DNA of 64,000 bases from an uncultured Actinomycetota bacterium (GTDB lineage Bacteria > Actinomycetota > Actinomycetes > Propionibacteriales > Nocardioidaceae), in NCBI GenBank assembly GCA_963781335.1, contig CAWAFS010000031.1, positions 54,059 through 118,058 on the forward strand, given 5' to 3'. The translations under genes were made by a program, and so were the position numbers. How positions within the stretch are numbered: the first letter of the stretch is position 1; every line of letters starts with the position of its first letter. Positions 49,440 to 60,095 of this stretch are shown piece after piece. The notes under the pieces were generated by a model. It searched no databases, was not told where the DNA came from, and saw only the letters and a list, made by a program, of their open reading frames with translations.

Positions 49440-50432
49440 CTACTCCACGGTGATCTGCTTGGTGTCCTCGCTCGTCCCGACGCCCTCGCCATCGGACTCG
49501 TCGGTGTCGTGGACCACGAGGGTGTAGGTGCCCGGTGGAGCCGTCACGGAGAAGGAGTACGGCGAGAGGGTGCAGCACGCCGCGGCGGTGGTGAAGCCGT
49601 TGCGGACGACCTGGCCGCCCTGCTTGAGCTCCCAGACCACGTTGGCCTCGAAGGTGGCCGCCACGCCTTCCACCTCGAACTCGGTGCTGACGACCTCCCC
49701 CTCGGCGGGGCGGTTGACGATGACCGGCGATGCGATCGAGTCGAAGCTGGCAGCTGGGACCGGGTCGCTGGTGTCGACGCCGAGCAGCGTCGGCACGGGC
49801 GAACCCTCCACGGTGAACTGCACGGGCCCGTCGGTCTCGCTGGCCCTCTGCGCTGTCACGACAAGCGCCTGCAGCATCATCGTGGCCACCTTCGGGGTCA
49901 TCCCCGCAGGACGGCGAAGCGCTTCGGAGACGTCGATCACGAGTCGGCCGCCGATCAGCTCTGCCTGCGCAGTCAGGTCGTCGGACTGGGTCCAGGCCTG
50001 GTAGTCCGGATCACGCGGAGGACTGCTGATCGCTGCCTGCACGGCGATCTCGAGGTCGGTGCCACGGACCTCCGTGAAGGTGCGCGTCTCCGGGAAGAGT
50101 CGCGGGCCCACTGCGGTCTCGCCCACGTAGAAGACGGACAGCGTCTCGCTGCGACCGGGTGCGAGCGACGTCTGACCGTCCGGGGTCTGCGAGGGGGAGC
50201 CCGGCTCGGCGGCCGGCGTACCCGACGGCTCTCGCTGACCCAGCCACCCGGCTCCGGCGATCACGATCACGGTCGCCACTGCCGCAGCCAGGACAATCGG
50301 CACCCAGCGGGTGGACGTCGGGCGGTCGGCGCGGGCACGGATGTCCGAGGTCCCGCCCTGTGGGTGCACGTCGGAGACAGCGTCGTCGAGCAGTCGGCGC
50401 AGCTCGGAGTCGTCGTTCGATGGGCCGGTCAT
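49440..50432 (-). CDS. membrane-anchored GerMN / Gmad2 immunoglobulin-like domain protein (possible anti-sigma partner)
   Basis: ATGA overlap with the upstream sigma gene. Cytoplasmic N-terminus, one TM (WVPIVLAAAVATVIVIAGAGWL), extracytoplasmic GerMN-like and Ig-like parts. Confidence 0.7.
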   Translation of the reverse strand: MTGPSNDDSELRRLLDDAVSDVHPQGGTSDIRARADRPTSTRWVPIVLAAAVATVIVIAGAGWLGQREPSGTPAAEPGSPSQTPDGQTSLAPGRSETLSVFYVGETAVGPRLFPETRTFTEVRGTDLEIAVQAAISSPPRDPDYQAWTQSDDLTAQAELIGGRLVIDVSEALRRPAGMTPKVATMMLQALVVTAQRASETDGPVQFTVEGSPVPTLLGVDTSDPVPAASFDSIASPVIVNRPAEGEVVSTEFEVEGVAATFEANVVWELKQGGQVVRNGFTTAAACCTLSPYSFSVTAPPGTYTLVVHDTDESDGEGVGTSEDTKQITVE

Positions 50433-50995
50433 GAGGTCTCCTCGAGCAGCGTGGACAGATGGGTGCGCAGGGCAACGGCCGCACGCGACGCATGGCTCTT
50501 CACGGCGCCCTGGCTGATCCGCAAAGTCTCGGCGATCTCTCGTTCGGAGAGGTCGAGGTAGTAGCGGAGCGCGAGCACCTCGCGCTGTCGCCGCGGCAGC
50601 CTGGCCAGCGCGTCGATCACCGCCTGTCGTCGTACGCCGAGCAGCAGGTCGTGGTCGGCGCCAGGCTCGTCGGGGGGGATCTCGGAGGGATGTCGCGAGA
50701 CGACCTTGAGGTGCCGGAGCACCGAGCGTGACCGGTTGACCACCGTCTGCCGCAGGTACGCCGGGACATCCGCGTCTCCCAACCGGTCCCAGCGCTGGTA
50801 GATCGCCACGAAGGAGTCCTGCACGACCTCCTCGGCGCGCCCGGCGTCGCCGAGGAGCAGCACGCCGAGCCGGACCAGCCGGACGTAGTGCTCGTCGTAG
50901 AGCTGCTCGAGGGCCGCCTCGGCTCCCGGGTCGCCGTCGATGCACACCCCCTGGGTGATGAAGCCGGTGTCGTCTTCGGACAGGACGTTGGTCAC
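50429..50995 (-). CDS. ECF RNA polymerase sigma factor (SigE-like)
   Basis: Region 2 (AEEVVQDSFVAIYQRW) and region 4 (LPRRQREVLALRYYLDLSEREIAETLRISQGAVKSHASRA). Confidence 0.9.
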   Translation of the reverse strand: MTNVLSEDDTGFITQGVCIDGDPGAEAALEQLYDEHYVRLVRLGVLLLGDAGRAEEVVQDSFVAIYQRWDRLGDADVPAYLRQTVVNRSRSVLRHLKVVSRHPSEIPPDEPGADHDLLLGVRRQAVIDALARLPRRQREVLALRYYLDLSEREIAETLRISQGAVKSHASRAAVALRTHLSTLLEETS

Positions 50996-51063
50996 GTTAG
51001 TTGGACGCCTGGGTCGCCTCGTTGGTTTACACGCCGTGAGGGCCGATCAGGCATGCTGTCCTC

Positions 51064-51423
51064 ATGGGTGACGGACAGGGAGCCGAGGACTGCCTCTTCT
51101 GCAAGATCGTCGCCGGCGACATCGATGCCGACGTGGTCCACGAGTCATCGACCACGGTCGCCTTCCGCGACCTGAACCCGCAGGCGCCCACCCACGTCCT
51201 GGTCATCCCGCGCAGCCACTACGCCAACGCGGCCGACCTGGCCGACGGCGAGCCCGAGGCCCTGGTGGGTCTGTTCGACGCCGCGCGGGCGATCGCCGAC
51301 AGCGAGGGTCTCGGAGAGGGCTACCGCCTCGTCCTCAACACCGGCGCCGCTGCGCACCAGACCGTCTTCCACGCCCACCTGCACGTCCTCGGGGGCCGGT
51401 CCATGACCTGGCCGCCCGGGTGA
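51064..51423 (+). CDS. histidine triad (HIT) nucleotide-binding protein
   Basis: CLFCKIV...FRDLNPQAPTHVLVIP...HAHLHVLGG. Confidence 0.92.
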   Translation: MGDGQGAEDCLFCKIVAGDIDADVVHESSTTVAFRDLNPQAPTHVLVIPRSHYANAADLADGEPEALVGLFDAARAIADSEGLGEGYRLVLNTGAAAHQTVFHAHLHVLGGRSMTWPPG

Positions 51424-52631
51424 GCACCCGGACCGCCACCCGGCGTACGACAGGACTCGCGGCCGCCGCGGCCCTGGCCCTGGTGCTCTCCGCCTGCGGC
51501 GCCAGCGACGACGAGCCCGCCAAGGCCGGGAGCGCGCCGACCCCGGCCTCCTCGGCGAGCCCGGAGCCGGACCACAGTGGCCACGAGCCGGCCGCCGCCG
51601 CGCCCGTCAAGCGCAAACCGCTGCGCAAGGGCGAGCGCCGGGTCACCGTGCAGATGCCGGAGGACTACACCCCGTCGGCGCCGACCGGCGTGGGTACCGA
51701 CGACTACCGGTGCTTCCTGCTCGACCCCAAGGTGCCGAGCGACCAGTTCATCACCGGGTTCAACGTGCTGCCGGGCAACCCCGACGTCGTGCACCACGTG
51801 ATCCTGTTCCGAGTCCCGACCGACCTGGTCGACGAGGCCGAGCAGAAGGACGCCTCCACACCCGGCCAGGGCTGGACCTGCTTCGGCAACTCGGGACTGG
51901 GAGGTGGAGTCGAGATCGACGACGCGCCGTGGCTGGGTGCGTGGGCACCGGGAGGCAGCGAGCAGCTCTACAGCTCGGGCTTCGGTGAACGCCTCGACAA
52001 GGGCTCGCGCGTCGTCATGCAGGTGCACTACAACCTGCTGGCGGGAAAGAAGCCGGACCGAAGCTCCGCCGAGCTTCGTCTGGCCCCGGTTTCGGACAAG
52101 ATCCGTGCGCTCGAGACCCGGTTGTTGCCGGCCCCGGTCGAGCTCCCCTGCCGCCCCGAGCATGCCGAGGGGCCGCTGTGCGCGCGACCCGCAGCGCTGG
52201 CCGACGTCAAGGAGCGGTTCGGTCAGGGACCGGGCGCGACGGCGGACCTGCTGCACTTCCTCTGCGGCGAGATCAAGGCCGGTCCCGTCCAGTCGTGCTC
52301 CCGGATGATCATGAAGCCCGAGACCGTACGCGGCGTCGCGGGGCACATGCACCTGCTCGGCAGGTCCATCAAGATCGAGGTCAACCCCGGCACCGCGAAA
52401 GCCCGGACCCTGCTGAACGTCCCGGTCTGGAACTTCGACGACCAGGGGAGCAAGCCGATCAAGCCAGCCGTGCTCACGCCGGGTGACACCGTCAAGGTGA
52501 CCTGTCGTCATTCGCAGCGGCTCCGTGACCAGCTGCCGTCCTTCGAGGGGCAGCCCGACAAGTACGTCGTGTGGGGCGAGGGCACCACCGACGAGATGTG
52601 CCTGGCCCTGCTGCTGGTCACCCGCCCCTGA
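51420..52631 (+). CDS. lipoprotein with copper type II ascorbate-dependent monooxygenase-like (PHM/DBH-like) domains
   Basis: Lipobox LVLSAC. N-domain His pair VVHHVILF and MQVHYN. C-domain HMHLLG and DEMC (Met ligand), with conserved Cys pairs. Confidence 0.65.
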   Translation: MSTRTATRRTTGLAAAAALALVLSACGASDDEPAKAGSAPTPASSASPEPDHSGHEPAAAAPVKRKPLRKGERRVTVQMPEDYTPSAPTGVGTDDYRCFLLDPKVPSDQFITGFNVLPGNPDVVHHVILFRVPTDLVDEAEQKDASTPGQGWTCFGNSGLGGGVEIDDAPWLGAWAPGGSEQLYSSGFGERLDKGSRVVMQVHYNLLAGKKPDRSSAELRLAPVSDKIRALETRLLPAPVELPCRPEHAEGPLCARPAALADVKERFGQGPGATADLLHFLCGEIKAGPVQSCSRMIMKPETVRGVAGHMHLLGRSIKIEVNPGTAKARTLLNVPVWNFDDQGSKPIKPAVLTPGDTVKVTCRHSQRLRDQLPSFEGQPDKYVVWGEGTTDEMCLALLLVTRP

Positions 52632-52739: not shown

Positions 52740-54878
52740 ATGACTGAGACCAGCAAGGCCGGCGCCGTCGGCAACAGCACCCGATCCAACGACGGGACCG
52801 CCCGGCAGACCCAGCACACGGTGGTCGTGCCCAGCAGCATCAACATGGTCTCCCTGCTCGGCCCTGGCGACGAGCACCTGACCCTCCTGGAGAGGGCCTT
52901 CGACGCGGACCTGCACGTCCGGGGGAACCAGATCACCCTGCGCGGTGAACCCGCCGAGATCGCCCTGGCGGAGCGCATGCTCGACGAGCTCGTGACGATC
53001 ATCCGCACCGGTCAGGGGATGACCGCCGAGACCGTGGAGCGCGTGATCACGATGCTGCGCGCGGAGACCACCGAGCGTCCCGCCGACGTGCTGTCGCTGA
53101 ACATCCTGTCCAACCGTGGCCGCACGATCCGGCCCAAGACGCTGAACCAGAAGCGTTACGTGGACGCCATCGACAAGCACACGGTGGTGTTCGGCATCGG
53201 TCCCGCAGGCACCGGCAAGACCTATCTCGCGATGGCCAAGGCGGTGCAGGCGCTGCAGGCGAAGAAGGTCAACCGGATCATCCTGACCCGTCCCGCCGTC
53301 GAGGCGGGCGAGCGCCTCGGGTTCCTCCCGGGGACGCTGAGCGAGAAGATCGACCCCTACCTGCGGCCGCTCTACGACGCCCTGCACGACATGCTCGACC
53401 CGGAGACCGTGCCGAAGCTGCTCGCGGCCGGGACGATCGAGGTGGCGCCGCTGGCCTACATGCGGGGCCGCGCCCAGCCCTACGACGCGCAGGTCCTCAC
53501 CCCTGCGGGCTTCCGACCCATCGGCTCCCTCGAGATCGGTGACCTGGTCATCGGGAGTGATGGCGGGCCCACACCTGTGCTTGGGGTCTACCCGCAGGGA
53601 GAGCGGGAGGTCTACCGCGTCACGACCACCGACGGCGGATCCACGCTGTGCTGTGGTGAGCACCTCTGGCAGGTTTCGACCCCCGAGGACAAGCGCCGCC
53701 TCCGGACCAGGGTGGTCGAGACCCGCGAGATGATCGGTAACCTACGGCGAGGGAACATCCACCGCTACGAGCTGCCGGTGATGTCCGGCACCAACCCCGA
53801 CCAGCAGCCAGTCCCGCTGGACCCCTACGCCTTGGGCCTGCTCCTCGGTGATGGCTGCATCACCACATCGACCACACCGGCGTTCTCGACAGCCGATCCC
53901 GAGCTCGTCGGACGCTTGGGGGTCGCGCTCGACGACCTCGGGGTGGACGTCACCCACAGCGCGGGCTACGACTACGTACTTCGAAGGCGCGGCGGTGGTC
54001 GTGGCGGGGTGATCGTCGCGAACCCGGTCACTGAGGTGCTTCGTGCGCTTCGGCTGGCCGGCACTCGGTCCGCCACCAAGTTCATCCCGGAGATCTACCT
54101 CGAGAACTCCTTCGAGGTGCGGCTCGCCCTGCTCCAGGGCCTGCTCGACACCGACGGTGGACCGGTCACGCAAGCAGGCCGCACGTGCCGCGTGCAATAC
54201 GTCACCACGTCACCGCGGTTGCGCGACGACGTGAGGTTCCTGACCCGCTCACTGGGCGGGATCGCGACCACCCGCACCCGGAAGGCCGAGGGCCGCACGC
54301 CGGGGAGGGCGAACGGGCGACCCGTCGGCTACGTCCACGACGCATACGTGCTGGACATTCGGCTACCCCCCGGCGTGCAGCCCTTCCGGCTGACGCGCAA
54401 GCGAGACAAGTACGAGGCCCTCACCGGGGGCCGCCCGATGCGCTATGTCGAGAGCATCGAGCCCGCTGGAGTCCAGGACACGATGTGCATCCAGGTTGCC
54501 GCCGAGGACTCGCTGTACGTGACCGACGACTTCCTGGTCACGCACAACACCCTCAACGACGCGTTCATCATCCTCGACGAGGCACAGAACACCTCGCCCG
54601 AACAGATGAAGATGTTCCTGACCCGCCTGGGCTTCGGCTCCAAGATCGTGGTCACCGGTGACGTGACCCAGGTGGACCTGCCGTCGGGGATCAAGAGTGG
54701 ACTGCGCGTGGTCGAGGGGATCCTCGGCGGCATCCAGGACGTCTCGTTCAACCGGCTCACCGCTCACGACGTGGTGCGGCACCGGTTGGTCGGCGAGATC
54801 GTCGCGGCATACGAGGCACACGACGCGGAGAACCACGACCCGCGACGCGAAGCGCGTTCCGATCGCGACCGCCGATGA
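52740..54878 (+). CDS. phoH: PhoH-like ATPase interrupted by an intein
   Basis: Walker A GPAGTGKT. The conserved segment ...APLAYMRGR / [15 protein letters not shown] is split by 359 aa. Exteins sum to 353 aa, the normal PhoH size. Confidence 0.92.
53472..54548 (+). mobile_element. intein (Ala1, Trp/Cys/Thr class-3 signature) with LAGLIDADG homing endonuclease domain
   Basis: Block [21 protein letters not shown]. Block [19 protein letters not shown] motifs [10 protein letters not shown] and [11 protein letters not shown]. Block F/G DTMCIQV...FLVTHN followed by +1 Thr. Confidence 0.85.
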
Positions 54879-54885
54879 GCATCCG

Positions 54886-55365
54886 ATGACCATCGAGATC
54901 CAGAACGAGTCCGGGGTCGAGCTCGACGAGGGCCGTACCCAACGCCTCGCCCGCTACGTCATGGACCGCATGCGCGTGCACCCACAGGCGGAGCTCTGTG
55001 TGACCGCCGTGGACGAGGCGACCATCGCCGAGCTGAACGCCAAGTGGATGGAGAAGGACGGGCCCACGGACGTGCTCGCCTTCCCGATGGACGAGCTGCG
55101 CCCGGGCATGGTCAACGAGGAGCCCGAGGAGGGTGTCCTGGGAGATCTTGTGCTCTGCCCGGCCGTGGCCGCGGAGCAGGCGAAGACCGCGGGTCACTCG
55201 GCCGCCGACGAGCTCGACATGCTCACGGTGCACGGGATCCTGCACCTTCTGGGCTACGACCACGCGGAGCCCGAGGAGCACCAGGAGATGTTCGGCCTCC
55301 AGGCGAGACTGCTCGCCGAGTGGCTCGGCCACGAGGCCGACCGACCGCTCACCGACCAGCTGTGA
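54886..55365 (+). CDS. ybeY: rRNA maturation RNase YbeY
   Basis: [11 protein letters not shown] zinc motif. Position after phoH. Confidence 0.95.
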
Positions 55366-56726: not shown

Positions 56727-56996
56727 GTGTTCCAGGGTTTCGAGGACTCCATGGTCGACGTGGGTCCGGTCAGGCTCCGGGTGCGCCGCGGTGGCAGCGA
56801 GCCCGCCGTGGCGCCGAGACTGGTGGAGGCCGGTTACCCGGTCGTGGTCCCGGACCTGCGCGGCTACGGCCAGTCCGGAAAGGTCGAGGTCACCGACGCA
56901 CGCCACGAGAGGGAAGACCGGGCAACGGGCCGCAGGGTCACCTGTCGCTGGCCTCGGCGCTCACCACCTTCCTCGATCACTAGACTTCCGACGTGA
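56727..56996 (+). pseudogene. remnant of an alpha/beta-hydrolase gene (N-terminal fragment with internal deletion)
   Basis: VFQGFEDSMVDVGPVRLRVRRGGSEPAV/APRLVEAGYPVVVPDLRGYGQSGK matches the start of epoxide-hydrolase/dehalogenase-like proteins. It lacks the LLLHG..W segment and everything from the nucleophile elbow onward. Confidence 0.45.
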
Positions 56997-57331
56997 CTGC
57001 GCTGCCTGCCGAGGACAACAAGCTCGTCGTGCTCGCCAGGGCCACCCGGGCGCGCACCGGGGGGGACGAGGGTGCCGCGCTGCGGGACCTCGACGGGCGC
57101 ACCTACGCCGCCGCGACGGTGAACCTCCCCTCGCTCCAGGTCTCCGCGGTCGGCGTCGCCGTATCCATGGCCGTGGCAAGCGGGGCCAAGGGAGCAGAGG
57201 CCGTGGTGGTTCTCACCGCAGGCGACCTCGCTGGGACAGATCTGGACATCGTTCGCGAGTTCGCCGGCCCCGGCGTACCGGTGCACCGGGGGACACCCAG
57301 TGGTCTCCTCCAGGACACCACGCCCACATGA
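56993..57331 (+). CDS. cytidine-deaminase-fold protein lacking the zinc/catalytic motifs
   Basis: 112 aa. LVVLARATRAR...YAAATVNLPSLQVSAVGVAVSMAVASG aligns to the CDA core, but CAE and PCxxC are replaced. GTG start overlapping the upstream stop. Confidence 0.65.
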   Translation: MTALPAEDNKLVVLARATRARTGGDEGAALRDLDGRTYAAATVNLPSLQVSAVGVAVSMAVASGAKGAEAVVVLTAGDLAGTDLDIVREFAGPGVPVHRGTPSGLLQDTTPT

Positions 57332-57378
57332 CATGGATCTCGCCCCCTGACAGGATCTTGAGTGCGCGATCTGGAAGG

Positions 57379-58788
57379 ATGGTTGTGGTGGGCAACCTAG
57401 GACCGGAGGTGGGCACCGAGTTGAGTGGCACGGCGCAGCACCAGGAAGCCGTACGCCGCCTGAAGGCGTCGTACGACGCGCTGGCGCCCGGGTCATCGGT
57501 GCGGCTGGCCAAACGGACCTCGAACCTGTTCCGCCCACGCGACCCGCTCTCGACGGCAGGGCTCGACGTCTCCGGCCTCAGTGCCGTGATCGCGGTGGAC
57601 CCGGAGGCCCGGACCGCGGACGTGCAGGGGATGTGCACCTATGAGGACCTCGTCGATGCGACCCTGCCGCACGGACTGATCCCGCTCGTCGTGCCGCAGC
57701 TGCGCACGATCACGCTGGGCGGCGCCGTGACCGGACTCGGCATCGAGTCGACGTCGTTCCGCAACGGTCTCCCGCACGAGTCGGTGCTGGAGATGGACAT
57801 CTTCACCGGTGGCGGCGAGATCGTGACCGCCCGCCGGGACAACGAGCACGCGGACCTCTTCGCCACCTTCCCCAACTCCTATGGCTCGCTCGGCTACGCC
57901 ACCCGGCTGCGCATCGAGCTCGAGCCGGTCCGCTCACACGTCGCCCTGCGGCACGTGCACTTCACCGACGCAGGGACGCTGCAGCAGGCGATCGCGACCG
58001 TCACCGACACCGGCCTGTGGCACGGCGAGCACGTCGATGCGATGGACGGCACGGCCTTCGAGCCCGACGAGTACTACCTGACCCTGGCGCGCTGGGTCGA
58101 CGCCTCCCCGGGGGACGGCTCGGACTACGTCGGCCAGCAGATCTACTGGCGTTCGATCCAGCAGCGGGAGATCGACCTGCTCACGACCTACGACTACCTC
58201 TGGCGCTGGGACACCGACTGGTTCTGGTGCTCGCGCGCGTTCGGGGCACAGCACCCCGTCGTACGCCGGATCTGGCCGCGTCGCCTGCGTCGCTCGGACA
58301 CCTACCACCGACTCGTGGGGCTCGACCGTCGATTCTCGATCATGGACCGCCTCGACCGTCGGGTCGGCCGGCCCCAGCGGGAGCGCGTGGTGCAGGACAT
58401 CGAGATCCCCGTCGAGCGGCTCGGCGAGTTCCTCGACTGGTTCGACCGGGACGTGGGGATGCGTCCTGTCTGGCTCTGCCCCCTGCGACTGCGGGACGAC
58501 GCCGTGTGGCCGTCGTACCCGTTGCGTCCCGGCCGGACCTACGTGAACGTCGGTTTCTGGGGCGCGGTGTCCGTCGGCGAGGACGCCCCGAACAGTCCGC
58601 TGAACCGCGCGATCGAGGACAAGGTCTCCGAGCTCGAGGGACACAAGTCGCTCTACTCCGAGTCCTTCTACGACCCAGCGACCTTCGAACGGCTCTACGA
58701 CGGCGCGAACCTTGCATCGGTGAAGAAGCGCTACGACCCGGACGACCGACTCACGAGCCTCTACGACAAGGCGGTGCGACGCAGATGA
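57379..58788 (+). CDS. FAD-binding oxidoreductase (BfaA-like, 10-methylene fatty-acyl reductase candidate)
   Basis: FAD_binding_4 pattern (VVPQLRTITLGGAVTGLGIESTSFRNGLPHE). ATGA-coupled to a CFA-synthase-family methyltransferase. Start at ATG 57379 after GGAAGG. Confidence 0.75.
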   Translation: MVVVGNLGPEVGTELSGTAQHQEAVRRLKASYDALAPGSSVRLAKRTSNLFRPRDPLSTAGLDVSGLSAVIAVDPEARTADVQGMCTYEDLVDATLPHGLIPLVVPQLRTITLGGAVTGLGIESTSFRNGLPHESVLEMDIFTGGGEIVTARRDNEHADLFATFPNSYGSLGYATRLRIELEPVRSHVALRHVHFTDAGTLQQAIATVTDTGLWHGEHVDAMDGTAFEPDEYYLTLARWVDASPGDGSDYVGQQIYWRSIQQREIDLLTTYDYLWRWDTDWFWCSRAFGAQHPVVRRIWPRRLRRSDTYHRLVGLDRRFSIMDRLDRRVGRPQRERVVQDIEIPVERLGEFLDWFDRDVGMRPVWLCPLRLRDDAVWPSYPLRPGRTYVNVGFWGAVSVGEDAPNSPLNRAIEDKVSELEGHKSLYSESFYDPATFERLYDGANLASVKKRYDPDDRLTSLYDKAVRRR

Positions 58789-60095
58789 CGCAGACGAACA
58801 ACGTGAATCCCAGCCTGGCTGGGACCCGGCTGACCCTCGCGCAGGTCTTCGAGACCCTGCTGGCGGGTCCTGCCCCGATCCGGTTCACGGCCTACGACGG
58901 CAGCGTCTACGGGCCGGAGGACGCCCGGGTGGGGCTCCACCTGAAGAACGAGCGGGGGCTGGCCTACCTGGTCACGGCGCCCGGAGACCTGGGGATGGCG
59001 CGGGCCTACGTCTCCGGCGACCTCGACGTGGTCGGGGTGCACCCGGGCGACCCCTACGAAGCGATGGTGCTGCTGCTGCGCGCCATGCGTTTTCGCCGTC
59101 CGTCCCCGACCCAGGTGGTGAGCCTGCTCCGCTCGATCGGGCTGAGCCAGATGGTGCCACCGGCACCCCCACCGCAGGAGCACCTGCCGCGGTGGCGCCG
59201 CCTGGTGGAGGGCTTCCGGCACAGTCCCGAACGTGACGGCCGCGTCATCCAGCACCACTACGACGTCTCCAACCGGTTCTACGAGCTGGTGCTCGGCCCG
59301 TCGATGACCTACACGTGCGCGCTCTACGCGACCGGCTCGGAGACCCTCGAGGTCGCGCAGCACGCGAAGTACGACCTCGTCGCCCGCAAGCTCGACCTCC
59401 AGCCCGGGCAGCGGCTGCTGGACGTCGGGTGCGGCTGGGGCGGCATGGTGCGGCACGCCGCCCGGGAGTACGGCGTCCGCGGGCTCGGAGTGACCCTGTC
59501 CCGCGAGCAGGCGGAGTGGGCCACCGCGAAGATCAACGAGGAGGGGCTCGACCACCTCGCGGAGGTCCGACACCTCGACTACCGCGACGTCGTCGAGACC
59601 GGGTTCGACGCGGTCAGCTCCATCGGCCTGACCGAGCACATCGGCGTCGACCAGTACCCGTCGTACTTCGCCTTCCTGCGCGACAGGCTCGTCCCCGGCG
59701 GGCGGTTGCTGAACCACTGCATCACCCGTCCCGACAACAAGCCGACCCAGACGGGCGCGTTCATCGACCGCTACGTCTTCCCGGACGGTGAGCTGATCGG
59801 CTCCGGGAAGATCATCACCGAGGCCCAGGACGCCGGCCTGGAAGTGCAGCACGAGGAGAACCTCCGCCAGCACTACGCGTTGACGCTGGGCGGCTGGGGG
59901 GCGAACCTCGAGGAGCACTGGGACGAGTGCGTCGCCGAGGTGGGCGAGGGGACGGCCCGGGTGTGGGGCCTCTACATGGCCGGTTCCCGGATGAGCTTCG
60001 AGCGCAACGAGATCCAGCTGCACCAGGTGCTGGCGACCCGGACCGACGAGAACGGCGTGAGCCGCTTCCCGCTGCGCCCCGACTGGATCCCCTGA
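58785..60095 (+). CDS. cyclopropane-fatty-acyl-phospholipid synthase family methyltransferase (BfaB/UfaA1-like)
   Basis: HYDVSNRFYELVLGPSMTYTCALY, SAM motif LLDVGCGWGG, and IGLTEHIG. Confidence 0.85.
   Translation: MTQTNNVNPSLAGTRLTLAQVFETLLAGPAPIRFTAYDGSVYGPEDARVGLHLKNERGLAYLVTAPGDLGMARAYVSGDLDVVGVHPGDPYEAMVLLLRAMRFRRPSPTQVVSLLRSIGLSQMVPPAPPPQEHLPRWRRLVEGFRHSPERDGRVIQHHYDVSNRFYELVLGPSMTYTCALYATGSETLEVAQHAKYDLVARKLDLQPGQRLLDVGCGWGGMVRHAAREYGVRGLGVTLSREQAEWATAKINEEGLDHLAEVRHLDYRDVVETGFDAVSSIGLTEHIGVDQYPSYFAFLRDRLVPGGRLLNHCITRPDNKPTQTGAFIDRYVFPDGELIGSGKIITEAQDAGLEVQHEENLRQHYALTLGGWGANLEEHWDECVAEVGEGTARVWGLYMAGSRMSFERNEIQLHQVLATRTDENGVSRFPLRPDWIP

Follow-up and report, generated by a model that had tools for sequence, protein, structure and literature searches.

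Class 3 inteins are defined by the absence of an N-terminal nucleophile together with Trp at position B:12, Cys at F:4 and Thr at G:5 (the Trp-Cys-Thr (WCT) triplet), the Cys at F:4 acting as nucleophile and as branch point of a class-specific intermediate (PMC3196547; the published mechanism is also given in PMC7664689). They form one clade, for which a phage origin has been proposed, and MP-Be DnaB, Dra Snf2 and MP-Catera Gp206 are efficiently splicing members (PMC3196547). The stretch of DNA described here (the window; 64,000 nt, positions 54,059 to 118,058 of the forward strand of contig CAWAFS010000031.1, GenBank assembly GCA_963781335.1) comes from an uncultured soil bacterium of the Actinomycetota (family Nocardioidaceae) and contains a gene for the ATPase PhoH (phoH, ybeZ-type) that is interrupted in frame by a 359-aa insert. 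The insert is very probably a mobile class 3 intein with a LAGLIDADG homing endonuclease, residing in the chromosomal phoH gene of this bacterium.

PhoH is among the top 15 bacterial intein hosts, with 21 inteins in Actinobacteria and Deinococcus-Thermus (Table 1 of Novikova 2016, PMC4760082). Class 3 PhoH inteins of M. fortuitum (OBK00716) and M. xenopi (EID13626) are aligned with DnaB inteins in Fig. 6a of Kelley et al. 2018 (PMC6195587), and PMC7360933 attributes a PhoH intein to M. smegmatis. An earlier note on this DNA, made from the sequence alone, had tentatively suggested that PhoH might not be a described host for class 3; this suggestion fails in view of the host list of PMC4760082 and the alignment figure of PMC6195587.

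Identification and boundaries of the intein

The phoH reading frame encodes 712 aa, and the PhoH domain (PF02562, E 2.6e-89) is matched in two stretches, the first of which ends at aa 245 (profile position 117). The insert runs from AQPYDAQ at its start (aa 245, nt 53472) to FLVTHN at its end (aa 603, nt 54548). It lies between Arg244 and Thr604, eight residues before Walker B, and the exteins total 353 aa. The coordinates of all features are summarized in Table 1.

A genome scan using one genome per species gave 600 pattern-matched stretches, among which were 582 loci encoding a relative; the best 80 of these loci were kept. Among these 80, the closest extein relatives were found in Marmoricola and Nocardioides genomes and metagenome-assembled genomes (MAGs) of the Nocardioidaceae, with a PhoH core 88-96.5% identical to that of the window and no insert. 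In the protein alignment, seven intein-less orthologs were gapped at exactly window aa 245-603 and read ...APLAYMRGR followed by T or S at the junction. Regarding the nucleotide sequence, the intein-less loci L037, L038 and L040 were collinear with the window from approximately 47.2 to 60.1 kb (about 12 kb) at about 80% identity, and the sole break in collinearity extended from 53,467-53,489 to 54,548-54,552. The empty sites of relatives showed 2-12 differences per 78 nt to the fused flanks of the window. The exact gap in the orthologs, the break in synteny and the near-identical empty sites exclude a continuous alignment of PhoH orthologs through the 359 aa. Chance is excluded by the match of the insert to a hidden Markov model (HMM) of the family (E 1e-188), together with 1285 relatives at E<=1e-5. 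The earlier note had described a 712-aa PhoH split by a 359-aa insert at 53472-54548, which is borne out to the exact coordinates, the boundaries being confirmed by the alignment with the intein-less orthologs.

Table 1. Features of the intein-bearing phoH locus (positions refer to the window).
Feature	Position	Strand	Remarks
phoH (ybeZ-type) precursor coding sequence	52740..54878	+	712 aa + stop; open reading frame (ORF) list; Pfam PF02562; model match to 3b85
N-extein	52740..53471	+	aa 1-244, end ...APLAYMRGR
Walker A	53199-53222	+	GPAGTGKT, in N-extein
Left half of putative homing site	53436..53471	+	joined to 54549-54590 gives the reconstructed empty allele
Intein	53472..54548	+	359 aa, Ala1 to Asn359 (protein aa 245-603); ortholog gap, synteny break, family HMM
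Block A	53472..53513	+	residue 1 = Ala (codon 53472-53474)
Block B	53634..53675	+	LCCGEHLW; Cys61 B:7, His64 B:10, Trp66 B:12 (codon 53667-53669)
LAGLIDADG homing endonuclease domain	53787..54401	+	approximately intein residues 106-310, limits approximate; Pfam, PI-SceI match
LAGLIDADG motif 1	53832..53861	+	acidic residue Asp127; Asp in 120/121 sequences
LAGLIDADG motif 2	54129..54161	+	Asp226 (Asp in 121/121) and Asp228 (Asp in 120/121)
Block F	54477..54524	+	DTMCIQV; Cys339 at F:4 (codon 54486-54488), predicted branch-point nucleophile
Block G and +1 residue	54531..54551	+	FLVTHN; Thr357 G:5, His358, Asn359; then Thr+1 (codon 54549-54551)
C-extein	54549..54875	+	aa 604-712
Walker B	54567-54590	+	IILDEAQN, in C-extein
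ybeY endoribonuclease gene	54886..55365	+	operon partner, context only; Pfam YbeY, E 1.2e-38

Splicing motifs, fold and endonuclease domain

The insert contains the intein blocks A, B, F and G, ends in His-Asn and is followed by Thr at position +1. Residue 1 is Ala, and hence there is no N-terminal nucleophile, neither Ser, Thr nor Cys; the WCT triplet is formed by W66, C339 and T357. The block numbering was checked against described class 3 inteins: H64 and W66 align with His65 and Trp67 of the M. smegmatis (Msm) and M. chimaera (Mch) DnaB1 inteins (6bs8, 6rix), and C339 and T357-H358-N359 align with the Cys and the Thr-His-Asn of MP-Catera Gp206, the counterparts of blocks F and G in the latter reading RCITV and PTHN/T (the slash marks the splice junction). 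The combination of Ala1, Trp B:12, Cys F:4 and Thr G:5 matches the published definition of class 3 (PMC3196547). Class 2 inteins likewise have a non-nucleophilic residue 1, but their other blocks resemble those of class 1 and the WCT triplet is absent; an assignment to class 2 was rejected, as the WCT triplet is present and the host is PhoH, not KlbA.

In the AlphaFold2 model of the full precursor, the mean predicted local distance difference test (pLDDT) score was 80.5, with values mostly between 80 and 97 over the insert. The top Foldseek matches were PI-SceI and other endonuclease-bearing VMA inteins (E 5.8e-18; the alignment to PI-SceI comprised about 457 columns), followed by the PhoH structure 3b85 (which aligned over the insertion with a TM-score of 0.87 on the target), gp41-1 and the class 3 inteins MchDnaB1 and MsmDnaB1. 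The model shows the Hedgehog/intein (HINT) fold, numerous solved inteins and the Hedgehog autoprocessing domain being among its Foldseek matches.

Within the insert, Pfam detected LAGLIDADG_3 at aa 459-519 (E 2.2e-12) as well as weak Hint and Hom_end matches between the two PhoH stretches. In sequence, residues 119-272 of the insert match residues 210-368 of PI-SceI. Two LAGLIDADG helices with acidic residues are present, and the endonuclease fold is inserted between the two halves of the HINT domain. The motifs quoted in the earlier note (blocks A, B and F/G, and two LAGLIDADG motifs) were thus all found where it had placed them; its class 3 signature residues were all located, the splicing domain is corroborated by the model and the Foldseek matches, and the endonuclease by Pfam, the two motifs and the fold match to PI-SceI.

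Conservation and distribution

A search with the intein alone yielded the 1285 proteins referred to above. The 120 best listed were all PhoH proteins, 62-82% identical to the query, and all but one had precomputed PhoH and LAGLIDADG_3 Pfam domains; most belonged to Actinomycetota, and some to MAGs labelled Chloroflexota, Planctomycetaceae, Omnitrophica and Blastocatellia. Conservation was counted in an alignment of up to 121 PhoH-intein sequences from these best-listed relatives. Trp B:12 and His B:10 were each present in 121/121 sequences, and Cys F:4 as well as the Thr G:5, His and Asn of block G in 120/120. The +1 residue was Thr in 115 and Ser in 5, and residue 1 was Ala in 95 and Ser in 16. 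The 16 Ser1 sequences (out of 111) keep the complete WCT triplet and represent natural Ser1 variants within a class 3 lineage.

Residues Cys60-Cys61 (window 53649-53654, B:6-7) place a CxxH motif where TxxH or DxxH would be expected. Cys at B:7 occurred in 119/121 PhoH inteins, and its role may be structural, in metal binding or in a disulfide with the catalytic Cys. It was rejected as a feature specific to PhoH inteins, because 46/77 viral relatives share it.

Regarding the genome scan, intein alleles at the identical site were found among the best 80 of the 582 loci in a Nocardioides MAG and in Kribbella, Phycicoccus, Isoptericola, Streptomyces, Kitasatospora, Amycolatopsis, Nocardiopsis, Nonomuraea, Actinomadura, Solirubrobacterales and Gaiellaceae. 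Compared with the window, the full-length alleles showed a flat intein identity of about 61-69%, whereas the identity of the extein core ranged from 68% to 94%; the nearest exteins (96% core identity) carried no intein. This pattern fits repeated horizontal acquisition and loss of the PhoH intein. The overall GC content of the intein is 0.68, compared with 0.69 and 0.65 in the flanks, and its GC content at third codon positions (GC3) is 0.86 compared with 0.95 for the N-extein and 0.88 for the C-extein (window 52740-54875), a weak compositional difference; a strong compositional signature of foreign origin was not found, GC being similar and GC3 only modestly lower. Shortened PhoH inteins of 328, 336 and 276 aa occur at loci L002, L027 and L034, which suggests decay of the endonuclease domain, and an unusually long match (2354 nt) was observed at the Streptomyces lilacinus locus L031. 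A search of the six-frame translation of the window with the family HMM matched the phoH insert alone, and a second intein of this family was not found there.

Distant relatives (27-44% identity) are abundant in phages, where they occur in helicases, terminase-like and other proteins, with the WCT triplet wherever the blocks align. In the 80 viral loci found, Trp was present in 77/77, Cys in 80/80 and Thr in 80/80. The relationship to the class 3 clade is indicated by this complete conservation and by the whole-length match to MP-Catera Gp206, and is based on sequence comparison; the presence of WCT in all viral relatives agrees with the published view of one clade with a proposed phage origin (PMC3196547). 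No viral sequence close to the PhoH allele was found in the IMG/VR scan, which returned only the relatives at 27-44% identity in other host proteins.

The inteins of Mycobacteriophage Alice gp175 and Phrappuccino gp2 are 38-41% identical to the window intein. The possibility that the Alice gp175 intein is the same as that of Catera Gp206 was rejected, as Megablast found the Alice intein in 11 records and Catera was not among them. The Alice helicase intein (L082 1501-2577) occurs at 99.9-100% identity in these 11 phage records only, a patchy distribution, and the annotation of its host gene varies between DNA helicase, terminase and 'DarB-like antirestriction'. A 'PhoH family protein' of Eggerthella phage LE2-3 (MW679026.1, LE23_82; L081 2219-3838) was considered as a phage vector of the PhoH allele and rejected: its exteins (approximately 94 and 88 aa) have neither a PhoH domain nor Walker motifs, and the PhoH name therefore seems to have been transferred via the shared class 3 intein. 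Pfam detects LAGLIDADG_3 only in this protein, and its intein has A1, EHLW, C at F:4 and THN/T. In L085 (IMGVR_UViG_3300037117_000083), the viral ORF starting at nt 2057 contains two tandem inteins of the class 3 clade (aa 244-597 and 649-1016), both with A1, W, C and T.

Comparison with described inteins

The mycobacterial PhoH inteins share the host protein (described as a phosphate starvation-inducible P-loop ATPase), the phylum and the class 3 WCT triplet with the window intein, a likeness drawn from the published description; the host organism differs, being a member of the Nocardioidaceae here. A Mycobacterium locus was not present among the best 80 of the 582 genome-scan loci. MP-Catera Gp206, cited in PMC3196547 as biochemically validated class 3 (Tori & Perler 2011), yielded a whole-length BLASTP match (32% identity, E 4e-36) that includes the LAGLIDADG domain; its block B contains EHLW, position F:4 is occupied by Cys, and THN precedes Thr+1. 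It is, however, phage-borne and located in a phage protein of unknown function in another insertion context, whereas the window intein resides in chromosomal PhoH. The class 3 DnaB1 inteins of M. smegmatis and M. chimaera (6bs8, 6rix, 6riy) share the HINT fold and the WCT geometry class, their His65/Trp67 corresponding to H64/W66, but are mini-inteins without endonuclease, have Asp at B:7 (DxxH) in place of Cys (CxxH), reside in DnaB, and show weak sequence similarity only (E ~1e-4).

Among the class 1 inteins, PI-SceI (yeast VMA1) and the Tli and Pho VMA inteins are the best structural matches (TM-score 0.62 on the target) and likewise combine a HINT domain with an inserted double-motif LAGLIDADG endonuclease. 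They differ in having Cys1 and no Cys nucleophile at F:4, in their low identity (15-17%) and in their eukaryotic or archaeal hosts. The cyanophage-like gp41-1 intein (class 1, 6qaz) is clearly similar over the N-terminal 67 residues (E 5.5e-11) and shares Thr at G:5 and the ...THN end, but differs in residue 1 (Cys), B:12 (Phe) and F:4 (Asp) and is a naturally split mini-intein. Residues 6-72 of the window intein (window 53487-53687) are thus closer to class 1 gp41-1 than to class 3 DnaB1. According to PMC7664689, class 3 inteins may have reached the HINT fold by convergence and not by divergence from class 1, a claim on which the gp41-1 similarity of the N-terminal half bears.

Proposed splicing pathway and alternative explanations

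On the model of the pathway published for class 3, Cys339 (F:4) would attack the Arg244-Ala245 peptide bond with its thiol and form the block F branched thioester, with His64 (B:10) and Thr357 (G:5) assisting and Trp66 (B:12) packing the core. The N-extein would then be moved to the side-chain oxygen of Thr+1 (Thr604), giving the standard block G branched intermediate; cyclisation of Asn359 (protein Asn603) would release the intein, and an O-to-N acyl shift would create the native Arg-Thr bond in a PhoH of 353 aa. Once released, the intein or its endonuclease domain would cut intein-less phoH at the conserved ...ATGCGGGGCCGC/ACCCTCAACGAC... (the sequence coding for RGR/TLND), and the intein would spread by gene conversion after cleavage. 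Because the insertion lies only eight residues ahead of Walker B, we infer that the precursor is not an active ATPase until it is spliced.

The reading as a mobile class 3 intein is based on the boundaries, the signature residues and their conservation, the fold, the class 3 homology, the patchy distribution and the empty sites; the splicing chemistry and the endonuclease activity are predicted. Several points weigh against this reading. B:7 is Cys (CGEH) and not the Thr of the usual TxxH motif, a Thr that class 3 inteins generally do not have (PMC6195587). Grafting the WCT triplet onto the class 1 gp41-1 intein resulted in no splicing (PMC7664689), so that the triplet alone is no guarantee of activity, and no study of PhoH intein splicing is reported according to a 2026 paper (PMC13347336). 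The activity and the target site of the endonuclease are deduced from sequence, and some relatives have shortened endonuclease domains (inteins of 276-336 aa), i.e., decay does occur in this family. The ratio of nonsynonymous to synonymous substitution rates (dN/dS) of the endonuclease domain against seven alleles was 0.20-0.38, similar to that of the splicing domains, which, like the conserved acidic residues of the LAGLIDADG motifs, speaks for the reading, but these values are rough because dS is near saturation.

With these points in mind, one may ask whether the intein is a resident, domesticated element in which class 3 splicing was kept and the endonuclease is no longer active, maintained either because imprecise removal would kill PhoH or because it serves as a redox- or zinc-sensitive post-translational switch on PhoH. 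In the class 3 DnaBi1 intein, both oxidation (disulfide) and zinc reversibly inactivate the catalytic Cys (PMC6195587; PMC7360933), and the PhoH intein has the conserved Cys60 and Cys61 in block B beside the active site; the shortened endonuclease domains of relatives would agree with domestication, as would the GC content close to that of the flanks, which speaks against its having come very recently from a compositionally different genome. We nevertheless consider domestication unlikely, since the two LAGLIDADG motifs, including their acidic residues, are intact and show almost no variation, dN/dS is as low in the endonuclease domain as in the splicing domain, and the patchy distribution among close relatives together with the uncoupled intein and extein identities points to continued transfer; the B:7 Cys, being common in viral relatives as well, indicates no PhoH-specific adaptation.

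It is very improbable that the insert is a splicing-dead relic which is not excised, leaving this phoH copy to encode an inactive ATPase. In a class 1 intein, Ala1 would indeed prevent splicing, a class 3-like intein from Arthrobacter has been shown to be a pseudogene (PMC3196547), and the failure of the WCT-grafted gp41-1 (PMC7664689) could be read in the same sense. The reading frame is, however, open through 712 codons, the catalytic positions are all intact and invariant across 120 relatives, and dN/dS is well below 1; the Arthrobacter pseudogene is without His B:10 and Cys F:4 (PMC3196547), both of which are present in the PhoH intein, the phoH-ybeY-corC cluster is conserved, and no second phoH was seen in the window. 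Splicing that bypasses Cys F:4, e.g., with the +1 residue attacking the N-terminal junction directly as in class 2, can be given hardly any credence. Ala1 is common to class 2 inteins, and the Ser1 of 16/111 family members could in principle support a class 1 start, but class 2 has so far been found in KlbA genes only (PMC3196547), the +1 residue is Thr here, the WCT triplet is complete and without variation even in the Ser1 members, and the intein is homologous over its whole length to Catera Gp206, for which PMC3196547 cites the class 3 validation.

Host gene and genomic context

The host is identified as PhoH/YbeZ by its PhoH domain, the Walker A and Walker B motifs and the adjoining ybeY, the ATG of which lies 8 nt past the phoH stop codon. 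The neighborhood is chromosomal and of housekeeping type (hrcA, dnaJ, rsmE, phoH, ybeY and a CNNM/CBS gene of the corC type), and the phoH-ybeY-corC cluster is conserved. No signs of a prophage were found around phoH, and an Rfam scan of the whole window gave no matches.

Between rsmE and phoH (49440-52631) there are two genes, one on the minus strand for a 501-aa protein with a Gmad2 immunoglobulin-like domain, and one for a 403-aa putative secreted protein with a sub-threshold match to Cu2_monooxygen only. This region is a variable spot in otherwise conserved synteny and aligns only partially with several related loci, with gaps at about 49.7-50.5 kb. Downstream, the ORFs 56791-58788 (FAD_binding_4) and 58017-60095 overlap as listed by about 770 nt; in the latter, a CMAS-type methyltransferase domain is found at aa 403-671 only, and its true start probably lies much further downstream.

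Implications

The window intein is an unexceptional case within the large family of PhoH inteins of class 3 that bear an endonuclease, a family noted before. It adds little to intein biology as such, PhoH being recognised as a host of inteins and mycobacterial examples of class 3 PhoH inteins being on record. For annotation, the 712-aa ORF is to be treated as a precursor, the true PhoH product being the 353-aa protein predicted to result from splicing. Its main remaining value lies in its convenience for experiments, because sister taxa carry natural empty alleles that are near-identical and provide suitable material for homing assays.

Two separate and speculative proposals, both of low probability, concern the wider role of the family. 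By analogy with class 3 DnaBi1, Cys339 together with Cys60 and Cys61 of block B could be reversibly blocked by oxidation or zinc, making the intein a conditional switch and not just a selfish element; if true, stress would delay the maturation of the PhoH/YbeZ ATPase, whose operon partner is the YbeY rRNA endonuclease. The WCT triplet, the clear similarity to gp41-1 and the Ser1 variants could, on the other hand, constitute natural evidence that class 3 diverged from class 1 and did not converge on its fold. The element, a class 3 intein of full length whose endonuclease is apparently intact and whose host gene belongs to a ybeZ-ybeY operon, would be a reasonable model for studying possible conditional class 3 splicing outside DnaB.

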